The position numbers are program-made. A stretch of 5,758 nucleotides of DNA from a virus (lineage: Duplodnaviria > Heunggongvirae > Uroviricota > Caudoviricetes): the IMG/VR virus record IMGVR_UViG_2778261708_000019; one strand, 5' to 3'. Shown here piece after piece: positions 1 to 5,071 of the stretch. Within the stretch, counting starts at the first letter, position 1. Every line of letters starts with the position of its first letter.

Positions 1-3000
1 CATCCTGACTTTCCAGAACCATACGAATCGCCCGCTGACGGACTTCGGGGGAAAAACGAGTATTTTTAGTCATCCTGTTTACCTCTTTCTCAGGGAGTTT
101 AGTCTCCAGGATTTCCGGGGCGGTTCATTCCTTAACTCAAAATGGCAATGATAGCCATATAACTTCTCTCCTCTACGGAGGAGGCCCAGCATTAACTAAT
201 TCAGCTGGAGTACCCTGGACTGCAGCTTATGTTGATACTATTGGCGAAGTCACGGCCGATCTTCGTTCAAATATTGCAGCTGAAGCTCGGGCAAAGATCA
301 TTTACGAACGTCTCATTAATGTTACTGATGATCCTGGAGTAAAAGACACTCTGGCATTTTTAATGACCCGGGAAGCAGCACACATGCTTTCATTTGAAAA
401 AGCATTACATTCAATTCGTAACACCTTTCCACCAGGAAAATTACCACCACTTGAGAAATACAAAAACGTATATTACAACATGTCAGAAGGTGAAGACGTC
501 AGAGGTAGTTGGAACAGTGATGAAAACTTTGACTATGTTTCCGATCCAGTTTCAGCGGTTGACGGTGGGGATGGGAAGGCCTCGATAAATCTTTCGACCA
601 AGCAAGAAGCTATGATAAAAGCTATGGCAACAAGGTTGAAATCCCATGAAGACATCAATCCTGTCACTGGCGCTGAGCTTGCTGAAGGAGAACCACAAAC
701 AAAGATAAATAGTAAAAACTAATTATCTTCTGGTATTTAGCTATCCCTCATAAGTTAATTGCCGCTGAGATATCCTAAGCTCTAGCCTCTGAAAATACAT
801 TTATATTTCGAAGCCCGCGATATTTTAAGCGGGCTTTTATTTTAAACTTCAGGTATTACAGGCCACTCAATATCAGGTGCAGTTGATGTATCAACACGGT
901 TCAGCAACACCCGATACTTTTTCCAGGCTTCCAGCAATGAGGTTTCTTCCTCCGTTGCGATTTCCAGATCTACAGCATCCTGAAGTGGCGCAATATGCTC
1001 ACTGGCTACCTGCATCAGGCTGTTTTTTGTTTCTTCCGCCTCCCGGATCCGGAACAGTTTTTCTGCTTCTGCATCTTTCACCCAGGCTGTGCCGTTCCAC
1101 TTCTGAAACTCCCCTTCCGGCGATAACCAGGTAACATTTTCCGGTAATGAGCCGAGTTCAGAAATAAATAACGCGTCGCCGGAAGCCACGTCATAAACCG
1201 TTTTACCCCGATGATCTTCAACGAGATGCCACGATGACTCATCACTGTTGAAAACAGCCACGAAGCCAGCCGGAATATCTGGCGGTGCAATATAGGTACT
1301 GTTTGCTGGCAGACCTGTATGAGGCGGAATATATGCGTCACCTTCACCAATAAATTCATTAGTTCCGGTCAGCAGATTATAAATTTTTATGGTCCGTGGT
1401 TGTTCACTCATTCTGAATGCCATTATGCAAGCCTCACAATGTAGTTAAATGCGATGTTTTTGACAGTGTTTTCCGCGTTACCCGCAGCGTTAACGGTGAT
1501 GGTGTGTCCATGTGAGCCAATCGCAACAGAGTGCGTATGAGCACCAATACCGACAGTATGTGCGTGAGCACCTGCAGATGCAGCTGTGCCGCTGACACTA
1601 TGAGTGTGCGCTCCTGCAGCACTTGTATTCACACTGGCCGCAGACACTACCTTATGTACTGACCCATTTTGTGACCACTGGCTGACTGCTGATGCGCCTG
1701 TGACACTATGAGTATGGTTTCCGGCACTTGCGGCTGTACCGCTCACACTGTGCGTGTGCGCCCCGGTGTTATTCGTGGATTTAGTGCCGTAATCAAACGA
1801 CGATGTGGTTTTCGTCCCCAAATCCGTACTGGATGCGCTGGCGCTGTGGGTGTGCGATTTAATGCCGTCCTGTTCCTGAGACAATACGGCCCGACCACTG
1901 GCAGGTTTGCCCTTAATCGTCCAGCCACGCATATCAGGGATCACGCCTGACGGATAAGCGGCTGCAAGTTTCGGGTATGCAGATTTGTCAAAAGTCTGCC
2001 CCTGCATCAGGGCATAGCCAGACGGAACGGTATCTGATGGCCACGGGATTGGTGCGCCAGGCGGATAAAACTGCTCTGATGGCGTATAGAGTGAATAAAC
2101 TGTACCGTCCGTTAACCCTTCCGGCTTATTAGCAGAATATGCTGGTGACGTATGAATCGTCACGCTGGCATTACTGGTATAATCCCATTGAATATTTACA
2201 CCAGTCGCATAATTTCCGATTGCAACGTAAATATCGTAAGTATCACCAGATGTATTGACCCAGGCAAAATTTGTAAACCCTGTCGATGTGCGCTGCCATA
2301 AAGCACCAGTAATCCCCTTCGGATTACCATTACCTGCACGCAAAACAAGTTCAGATATACCTGCCTGTTGAGGTGACCCCACGTTAAATCCCGCGCCACC
2401 AATCAACGTAATTGAAACAACAGAACTCGCCTGTGGCATGGTTACCGTTGCTAATTTGAACCAACCAGCACCACCGCTGAATGACATTGTTGTTGAGTTA
2501 AGCGTACCAATATCTTTCGGCGTCAGTGTTATATCCGATGAAAGCGCCTTACCATTCACCTTACGGGCAGAAGGTACCCGACCATTCGCATTATCATTAG
2601 CTGCTTTCACTGCTTTCGGTGTCGCGGCAAGCGTTTCAGATGCGCTGTTGGTTGCACTACTGAGCTGGACAATTCCTTTTTGTGCTGTCGTAGCGTCCTG
2701 AGCAGTATATTTCCCGTTAGCAAGGTCATAGGCTGCCTTTACCGACTTTGGCGTTGCCGCCAGCATTTCAGATGTGCTGTTGGTCGCGTTGCTAAGCTGA
2801 ACTATCCCTTTCTGTGCTGTCGTTGCATCCTGTGCGGTGTATTTCCCGTTAGCCAGCTCATACGCGGCCTTAACGGCTTTTGGCGTTGCCGCCAGTGACT
2901 CGGAAGTGCTGTTAGTCGCACTGCTGAGCTGTACTATCCCCTTTTTCGTCGTGCTCGCATCCTCAAGCGCCACGGCGGATGCAATATCCTCTGCCCGTTT

Positions 3001-5071
3001 TGCCGCTGTCTCAGCGCGCGTTGCTGCAGATTCCGCCGTACTTTTGCTCTGAGCTGCTGCCGTCGCACTACCAGCTGCCTCTGTCGCCTTCGTGGATGCC
3101 GTCGTGGCGCTGCTCTTCGCTGCTGACGCTTGTCTGGTCGCCTCATCTTTTGAAGCAGACGCAGATGATGCCGATGACGCCGCCGAACTGGCTGACGATG
3201 CGGCAGCCGTTTTTGAGGATTCTGCGCTGGTTTCCGACGCTTTCGCGTTCGTTTCGGATGTCTTCGCTGCGGAAGCAGAACTCGCTGCTGCGCTGGCCTG
3301 TTCAGTGGCTTCGCCAGCCTTCGTTGTGGCTGTTGAAGCAGACGATGCGGCACTTTCTGCCGATTTTCCGGCGGCGGTGGCACTGGCTGAGGCCTGCCCG
3401 GCACTTGTTGACGCGGCACTGGCAGATAATGCAGCCGCTGTTTTTGAGCCTGCTGCTGCGGAGGCACTCTGTTCTGCTGCCGTTTCAGAGGACTTAGCGT
3501 TTGTCTCAGACGTTTTGGCCGCCTTCGCGGAATTGCCTGCCGCCGTTGCCGAGGAGGCTGCACTACTGGCGCTCGAGGCTGCGCTCGTTTCTGATGATTT
3601 TGCCGCCTCTTTTGAAGCCGACGCATCCCTGGCTGAGGAGGCAGCTTCTGACGCTTTCGTGGTCGCGGTGGATGCAGAAGTGGCGGCTGATTGTTGTGAC
3701 ACTGCCGCATTCGTTTCTGACGTTTTCGCCGCACCGGCACTGGTAGCCGCCGCGCTTTTTGAGGACTCTGCAGCGGCAGCACTTTTTGATGCTTCAGTAG
3801 CCTTTGTTGATGCCGTTCCTGCGCTGGAAGACGCTGACTGAGCCGACGACGCGGCCTGTCCGGCTGACGTGCTGGCTGCGCGTGCTGAGTCCGCAGCATC
3901 AGTCGCATGGGTTGCCGCCTCACGGGCTGATGTGCTGGCATCGCTGGCTGACTTCTTCGCGGCTGCCGTGTTCTGTGCCACCGCGGACGCGTTACGCGCC
4001 ACCTCTTCCACCATCAGCTCAAAACGGCGCAGTGCCTCCGGACGGACATCATCCTCAGTCATGGCACCAAGAAAATCATTCAGCGTACCGGGTTGAGAAT
4101 CTTCATACACGGTGATGGTCCCGGCATGTGACGGCGGGAACCCTTCCACCAACAGAATAACGCTGTACTGACCGTACTCAACGTCCATGCTGTAACGCCC
4201 GGCTTCATCCGGATTTTCTGAGGCCAGCGTGTTCACCACCACCGTGGTACTGTTACGTTTTGCTTTCAGCTGGATTGTGCAGTTCTGTACCGGTTTTCCT
4301 GTGCCGTCTTTCAGTACACCTGAAATCTTTACTGCCATATTCACCCCACAAAAAAGCCCGCCTGAACCGGCGGGCTGTCATAACACTGTGTTACCTAGCT
4401 AATCAGAATTTATAACCAACACCCACGATGAACCCGTCAGTGCGCCAGTCACCACTGCCAGAACCTTCATAAGCAATATCAATGGCCACGGATTCGGTCG
4501 GGTTAAACTGCACGCCAGCCCCCCACGCCAGAGACGTGTTGCTGTGGCGACCGTCATCACTTCCGGTCAGCACATCGTGCGTTTTCCCCTTGTTGTCAGT
4601 TACGCGAAGGTAATCCCCGGAAAAAGTCGAAACACGGCTGTAAGCCATACCCGCCATCGCATACGCGCTGAACCATTCATTCACGCGCACAGACGGCCCC
4701 GCCATCACGCTGAACCAGCGGTTACGCACGGAATCTTCATGCCAGCGGGTATCGCTGTAACGGGTCAGCTGGCGATTCTTGTCTCCTGCATAGCTGAATG
4801 ACGTCACCAGCCCCAGCGTATCCGTAAACTCATAACGGTATTTCACGTTAATCCCGTTCAGATCATCACTGCCGGGAACGTTGGTCCGGGCATGAAGATA
4901 CCCCGCGCTCAGCGTGGACTGATGTTCAGATGCCCATGCAGGCGCACCGGATACGGCCAGACAAATGGCTGCGGACAAAATGGCGGCATAAAGTTTACGC
5001 ATAATTACCTCTCGCTTTTCTGCAATAAAAAAGGCGTCATTTCTGACGCCCGTTCTGGGTTATAAAATTCA

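Follow-up and report, generated by a model that had tools for sequence, protein, structure and literature searches.

The locus described here raises the question of whether a long tract of protein made almost entirely of alanine, serine and threonine, situated inside the side tail fibre gene stf of a lambdoid prophage, is a defined structure or merely a stretch of low complexity. The gene lies in a 5,758-nt stretch of DNA (IMG/VR record IMGVR_UViG_2778261708_000019), the whole of which is referred to below as the window; its content is the right end of the tail module of an Escherichia coli O157:H7 lambdoid prophage, read on the minus strand. Our analysis points, with a probability of about 0.9, to the tract being the parallel trimeric alpha-helical coiled-coil proximal shaft, some 54 nm long, of the prophage side tail fibre. 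Two nested intervals are central to the argument:

2995..3996, minus strand: the A/S/T-rich core flagged by a preliminary description of this DNA, stf residues 117–450 in the numbering of the 973-residue product
2959..4050, minus strand: the tract as delimited here, residues 99–462, 52 uninterrupted heptads in a single phase run with the consensus [T/S]-x-A-x-[S/T]-S-A

The core corresponds exactly to the interval given in the preliminary description, and the peptide quoted there is present in it. Its 334 residues include 125 Ala, 85 Ser and 40 Thr (74.9% A/S/T), and the remainder comprises 23 Lys, 20 Glu, 10 Gln and only 9 Gly, with Asn, Asp and Arg also scattered along it. The GC content of the tract is about 0.60, against 0.45–0.55 in the flanks. 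We also agree with that description that the segment is not collagen-like: a Gly-X-Y pattern was not found in the 334 core residues, which have neither glycine at every third position nor a period-3 signal. The periodic unit extends slightly beyond the core, to the 364 residues between 99 and 462, and runs through them without a phase break.

The heptad character of the tract was evident from several measures. Residue identity at lag 7 was 0.41, compared with 0.204 ± 0.019 in shuffled tract sequences, and the autocorrelation of both Ala and Ser peaked at lags of 7, 14, 21, 28 and 35. The Fourier power of the Ala indicator reached 43 times the variance at a period of 3.50 and 17.6 times at a period of 7.00. 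Three of the seven columns carry a signature, namely Ala in column 3 (c3, 47 of 48), Ser in column 6 (c6, 37 of 48) and Ala in column 7 (c7, 34 of 48), where the remaining positions are Lys or Glu. Because the first heptads contain the ordinary hydrophobic residues F, V, L or M in columns 3 and 7, we infer that c7 corresponds to the a position of a coiled coil, c3 to d and the Ser column to g; the first heptad itself probably belongs to a flexible linker. The tract thus combines heptad periodicity with small or hydrophobic residues at a and d, with a core that is atypical in being built of Ala, not Leu or Ile. Helix breakers are scarce, with 1 Pro and 9 Gly, and there is 1 aromatic residue in all 364. 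The tract is therefore a structured heptad array and not unstructured low complexity.

Conservation among relatives follows the same columns. In a set of 47 unique proteins, drawn from 58 homologues with 52 heptads, 11% of positions were variable in c3, 11% in c6 and 9% in c7, as against 32–47% in the other four columns, so that the signature columns are about four times less variable than the rest. The same three-column signature also occurs in the fibres of lambda, of the 434/Stx1 type and of the 1W type, as well as in T5 pb1.

These observations bear directly on the proposal that the tract is an intrinsically disordered, flexible A/S/T linker that would join the attachment domain to the receptor-binding part as an entropic spacer. 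The very low sequence complexity (75% A/S/T), the lack of any Pfam family over most of the tract and the only moderate confidence of its AlphaFold2 (AF2) model would all fit such a linker. However, a linker of this kind would be expected to have no periodicity, to be rich in Pro or Gly and to be under uniformly relaxed constraint, and we found a strict heptad phase through 52 repeats, almost no Pro or Gly and conservation restricted to three heptad columns; in addition, homologous or analogous regions have been found by experiment to be helical and trimeric. We therefore consider a disordered linker very unlikely. The preliminary description had offered a flexible spacer as one possibility, which does not suit a tract poor in Pro and Gly with position-specific constraint, and an extended or coiled-coil shaft as the other, which is borne out by the heptad periodicity, the helix prediction and the published data on lambda gpStf and the EPclA PCoil.

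The prediction of a helix comes from the AF2 monomer model, in which residues 97–475 are helical with two breaks, at a predicted local distance difference test score (pLDDT) of 60–86 over most of the helix, in accordance with the near absence of helix breakers. The trimeric alpha-helical state that we ascribe to the Stf tract is carried over from the literature on its homologues. In such a shaft, three Stf chains would run parallel in a left-handed alpha-helical coiled coil whose core is unusually small, the a layers being Ala and now and then Lys or Glu, the d layers almost always Ala, and the flanking g positions Ser. At about 0.1485 nm per residue, the 364 residues would give a rod of about 54 nm. 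This rod would begin a few residues past the N-terminal collar, the clamp that holds the fibre on the tail tip, and would stop at the Phage_fiber_2 (Pf2) repeats, which lead into the distal receptor-binding part. The role of the shaft would be mechanical: it would trimerise the chains next to the collar and keep the gp37-like tip well away from the axis of the tail, and this extended reach may allow the fibre to locate its receptor in the outer membrane before engagement of the central J fibre. The periodic Lys/Glu a-layers may help to set the register of the chains in an otherwise featureless Ala core, a suggestion of our own.

Several points weigh against a trimeric coiled-coil shaft. We found no atomic structure in the PDB that covers such a tract, the entry 9e7m resolving residues 1–94 only, and the tract alone retrieved from the PDB only a weak match to T7 gp17 (E 0.076). 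The AF2 model is that of a monomer, which does not show an oligomer, with a mean pLDDT of 61 and two breaks that are artificial. An all-Ala/Ser core would be atypical and of marginal stability per heptad. Finally, two apparently intact alleles, one with a single-residue deletion (L123) and one with a four-residue insertion (L043), would upset a perfect heptad register.

A repetitive protein does not necessarily imply repetitive DNA. The preliminary description had supposed that the DNA of the tract invites replication slippage or unequal recombination, and our results do not sustain this. Tandem Repeats Finder (TRF) reported no tandem array in the tract apart from one 25-nt row of 2.8 copies with a period of 9. 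The longest exact direct repeat in the tract is 12 nt, and no repeated 15-mer was found in it; the corresponding values were 12.9 ± 2.1 nt when synonymous codons were permuted, 12.1 ± 1.4 nt when codons were shuffled and 13 nt in a control segment within stf. Since the protein is repetitive while its exact DNA repeats are at the null level, the tract would be a poor substrate for slippage or for RecA-dependent unequal exchange. The tract draws on each of the four Ala codons and each of the six Ser codons. We also considered whether repeats are avoided through synonymous codon choice and rejected this, the null sequences equalling or exceeding the observed value in proportions of 0.69 for the longest repeat and 0.51 for 12-mers. 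The repeats that a dedicated search did recover in the tract are degenerate, their copies being 60–90% identical and spaced mostly by multiples of 21 nt. The only true tandem repeat of stf at the DNA level is the 132-nt Pf2 unit (TRF: positions 2630–2940, 2.4 copies, 80% matches), of which homologues have between 0 and 3 copies; unequal exchange is more likely to occur in the Pf2 region than in the tract.

To define the length of the tract among relatives, a 1111-nt query spanning it was compared with 5426 complete E. coli genomes, which gave matches at 7301 places; in 3582 of the 5426 genomes, 80% or more of the query was covered by a match. Lengths were read from a sample of 60 evenly spaced rows, 46 of which covered the whole query. 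These tract comparisons rely on DNA searches; a tblastn search of phages with residues 1–470 aligned residues 1–115 only, the tract being masked as low complexity. Among the 46 full-length matches, 43 were exactly 1111 nt long, at 88–100% identity. The exceptions were a 1-nt deletion (L125) and a set of four single-base insertions or deletions amounting to a net gain of 2 nt (L124), both in genes annotated as frameshifted, and the loss of one GCC codon from an AAAA run in a gene that seems intact (L123, E. coli FDAARGOS_1303).

A wider set of 75 complete homologues from IMG/VR and GTDB showed discrete classes. The 52-heptad form accounted for 58 of the 75, with total lengths of 652–1194 residues. 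At 11 loci there were 37 heptads between the same end motifs, comprising three genes of 767 residues and eight copies of the 401-residue allele of laboratory lambda. A gene with 36 heptads (L065) has lost 16 heptads between KSSETN and KTSETN repeats, with 5–7 nt of microhomology at the junction, and is truncated. Homologues with 34 heptads (L057) and 24 heptads have a different distal end. In one further allele (L043) a 12-nt tandem duplication (ACTTCAGCATCC) adds four residues, a four-residue stutter. Lengths therefore differ by whole heptads (52, 37 and 36; 34 and 24), except for the alleles with four residues more or one residue less.

Could the tract then be a hypermutable length locus, in which DNA repeats drive slippage or unequal intragenic recombination and fibre length changes often among close relatives? 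The whole-heptad steps between the classes, the 16-heptad deletion with its short junction microhomology, the 12-nt tandem duplication and the spacing of the degenerate repeats by multiples of 21 nt are what such a locus might leave behind. However, neither the high-identity tandem DNA repeats nor the frequent length polymorphism among close relatives that mark a contingency locus were found in the tract: there is no TRF array, the longest repeat is no longer than in codon-shuffled or control sequence, nearly all sampled full-length E. coli matches keep the exact length of the query, the exceptions are two frameshifted pseudogenes and a single lost codon, and most length classes accompany sequence replacement at recurrent junctions. 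We regard hypermutability as very improbable. The expectation that fibre length varies between related phages thus stands in part: the discrete classes of 52, 37, 36, 34 and 24 heptads support it, but the 52-heptad form keeps its length in 43 of the 46 sampled full-length E. coli matches, down to 88% nucleotide identity, and in 58 of the 75 complete homologues.

The recurrent junctions were mapped as breaks in similarity to the coding sequence (CDS) of stf. One lies at CDS nt ~351–356, the start of the tract, and is shared by most Stx phages and 434. Others recur at nt ~540 and ~1334, and one at nt ~842–848, at a KTSETNA motif, is where mEp460, Ayreon and the match to T5 pb1 end. Further on, similarity often stops after the first or second Pf2 repeat, with breaks at residues ~483–485 and ~527. 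The fibre genes of the 106-kb plasmid pF404-2 (L126) and of the ~107-kb phages CMS-2020a and Cyrano have the same shaft as this gene from about residue 180, at 88–92% nucleotide identity, and in the plasmid gene it is joined to an unrelated N-terminal domain; the plasmid and both phages look SSU5-like. The IMG/VR homologue with 34 heptads (L057) is a hybrid of a lambda-type collar, its shorter heptad array and a distal part homologous to T5 pb1 (KEYLD...VSP.TQYDWP). As most of the length classes accompany sequence replacement at these junctions, length diversity stems mainly from the in-phase exchange of shaft modules between phages and not from slippage within lineages.

The constancy of the major class deserves separate comment. 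Most E. coli lineages retain exactly 52 heptads even where their nucleotide sequences diverge by as much as 12%. In an alternative architecture, 24 heptads (~25 nm) are followed by a 111-residue collagen helix (~32 nm), giving about 57 nm in total, as compared with about 54 nm here. From the constancy of the 52-heptad form and the nearly equal total rod length it is conceivable, though we consider it doubtful, that the shaft is a length-selected ruler, in which selection acts on how far the side fibre extends from the tail tip, the 37 heptads of lambda represent a second optimum, and the Lys/Glu a-layers act as register keys against sliding of the helices.

Two further explanations concern the tract as a piece of DNA. 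Stop-free open reading frames (ORFs) in its other frames could be taken for additional proteins, since those at 2934–3941 (minus strand, 335 residues) and 3092–3841 (plus strand, 249 residues) are long for a 1-kb interval. Their products are rich in Arg, Pro and Gln or in Ala, Asp and Glu, as the GCN/TCN-rich composition alone predicts. In addition, across 43 unique homologous tracts the variable nucleotide sites numbered 52, 53 and 205 at stf codon positions 1, 2 and 3; this concentration at stf third positions indicates selection on the stf frame only, and the freedom of those positions to vary is incompatible with a second constrained frame. We give almost no credence to additional proteins, and on the grounds of composition these ORFs are by-products of GCN/TCN-rich codons.

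The tract might also be an assembly artefact, a collapsed or expanded repeat. Most database matches to the N-terminal domain are indeed "partial", at 108–210 residues, and draft assemblies often break just inside the tract. However, hundreds of closed genomes have the same sequence at the same length, and the breaks are explained by paralogous prophage copies, the whole window being matched at a median of 6 places per genome and the tract at no more than 7. An artefact is thus extremely improbable; where draft contigs end in the tract's first ~100 residues, the probable cause is that several prophages in a genome share it.

During these searches we observed laboratory lambda DNA (L083–L099) in assemblies labelled Leeuwenhoekiella, Pseudomonas, Shewanella, Oceanobacillus, Kitasatospora and Desulfosporosinus, among others. 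The contigs bearing it are up to ~48.5 kb or short, with a coverage of about 0.6–10x where the contig name gives one, and the nine that contain a complete gene carry the 401-residue frameshifted orf-401 allele. This looks like contamination of reference genomes with control DNA.

The gene itself and its surroundings were assigned from the ORF list, Pfam and an identical annotated locus in RefSeq, as follows:

1423..4344, minus strand: stf, side tail fibre, 973 residues from a GTG at 4344 (ORF list; PF08400, three PF03406 and PF07484; identical RefSeq locus)
4057..4338, minus strand: N-terminal collar (tail-attachment) domain, stf residues 3–96 (PF08400; PDB 9e7m/9mgh)
2569..2955, minus strand: three Pf2 repeats, residues 464–592, directly after the shaft (three stretches of PF03406)
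1426..2109, minus strand: receptor-binding tip resembling T4 gp37, residues 746–973, with a collar domain and His-x-His repeats (PF07484, PF03335)
5069–5725, minus strand: C-terminus of J (ORF list, Pfam)
4403–5002, minus strand: lom (Pfam Ail/Lom)
842..1423, minus strand: tfa, tail fibre assembly chaperone (PF02413 Caudo_TAP, E 3.4e-45)
1–722, plus strand: 3' part of a host manganese-catalase gene (ORF 363–722), which extends beyond the left end of the window

RefSeq places the start of stf at the ATG at 4338, which gives a product of 971 residues (WP_000279120.1, annotated at the identical locus). The PF08400 match covers residues 3–136 (E 4.4e-72), and residues 3–96 match the lambda gpStf collar in PDB 9e7m/9mgh, where it is named "Tail fiber protein" residues 1–94, with E 4e-52. 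At the other end, the last 228 residues are matched by the receptor-binding needle of T4 gp37 (PDB 2xgf, E 2.5e-88), His-x-His repeats included. In lambda Stf/StfR-type fibres the tip is chaperone-dependent. With J upstream and lom and tfa on either side of stf, Pfam and RefSeq agree on the order J–lom–stf–tfa of a lambdoid tail module; this order, the PF08400 collar, and the Pf2 repeats followed by a gp37-like tip place the protein in the lambda Stf/StfR family. We considered whether the manganese-catalase ORF at 363–722 was a gene fragment and rejected this, since the ORF forms the end of a host gene that is intact and continues outside the window. Beyond it the genome continues with ferritin-like and general-stress genes, and the prophage therefore ends just past tfa. 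The window matches many closed O157:H7 chromosomes at 100% identity across 5631 nt.

What looks like junk composition in a very common E. coli prophage gene is thus very probably a structural rod with a repeat phase that has to be respected. For annotation, it is useful that nothing marks the tract's long ORFs in other frames as genes in their own right, and the presence of several paralogous prophage copies per genome helps to explain why draft assemblies break there. For the design of chimeric tail fibres for phage-based delivery, the natural in-phase junctions lie where the tract starts, at the KTSETNA motif and past the Pf2 repeats. The finding is real but ordinary and opens no new biological question; the type of domain is already known, having been described for lambda and for sister prophage fibres.

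Among the closest known systems is Ur-lambda, in which cryo-electron microscopy, cryo-electron tomography and AlphaFold3 modelling revealed four side fibres, each a trimer, and the gpV/gpM junction is encircled by a collar of 12 gpStf copies (Yu et al, Sci Adv 2025; PMC12617516). That study divides gpStf into a collar (residues 1–91), a flexible linker (92–101), the proximal coiled-coil domain (102–393), a hinge (394–422) and a distal part, and reports that binding by a side fibre can precede that by the central fibre (Yu et al, Sci Adv 2025; PMC12617516). Ur-lambda gpStf is a true homologue of the protein studied here, with the PF08400 collar, the heptads in the same order, and the same end and Pf2 junction. 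The lambda gene has the same position in the order J–lom–stf–tfa and 82.6% nucleotide identity, and its heptads align one-to-one with ours except for a single 315-nt gap of 15 heptads. It differs in having 37 heptads (~38 nm) against 52, so that the present rod would be ~15.6 nm longer, and one Pf2 repeat against three. StfR of the K-12 Rac prophage has a tract of identical length at 94.8% nucleotide identity, but members of this family, that of the "prophage tail fiber N-terminal domain-containing protein", differ in the parts distal to the tract: in 49 homologues with the same tract length and end motif, 200–734 residues follow the tract, in 24 different lengths.

Experimental evidence for the helical state of such an array comes from EPclA, a paralogous O157 prophage fibre, whose Ala/Ser/Glu "low complexity region" before the collagen domain was named PCoil (Ghosh et al, PLoS One 2012; PMC3368898). 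Circular dichroism (with cooperative, reversible melting near 49–52°C), size-exclusion chromatography with multi-angle laser light scattering and rotary-shadowing electron microscopy established that PCoil is alpha-helical and trimeric, and its measured length of ~16 nm fits the helical rise (PMC3368898). A loose A-x-x-A/S-x-x-S heptad, with lengths differing by multiples of seven, was also described (PMC3368898). EPclA and EPclB share with the present fibre the N-terminal PfN domain and the column signature (c3 Ala 15/18, c6 Ser 12/18, c7 Ala 14/18), but have only ~24 heptads, more Glu and then a collagen Gly-X-Y triple helix. The DNA of EPclA-type fibres parts from that of this gene exactly at CDS nt 356, the tract start. 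We found the same architecture, consisting of the same N-terminal domain, 24 Ala/Ser/Glu heptads, a long Gly-X-Y segment and a small C-terminal domain, in an Stx1a phage (L119), 434 (L120), BP-4795 (L121) and L097.

More distant likenesses are limited to the shaft. Residues ~55–215 of the T5 L-shaped tail fibre pb1 (gene ltf, L128) form 23 AKTSETN-type heptads (c3 Ala 20/23, c6 Ser 20/23), and the gene is 80% identical to ours over 117 nt. The proximal rod of T7 gp17 bears a weak likeness at its residues 173–263. Both proteins differ from this fibre in their tail-attachment domains and distal parts and can be aligned with it only in short segments. Judged from the sequences, the relationship to T5 pb1 looks like an exchange of shaft modules, of which the hybrid with a lambda-type collar and a pb1-homologous distal part would be one example.

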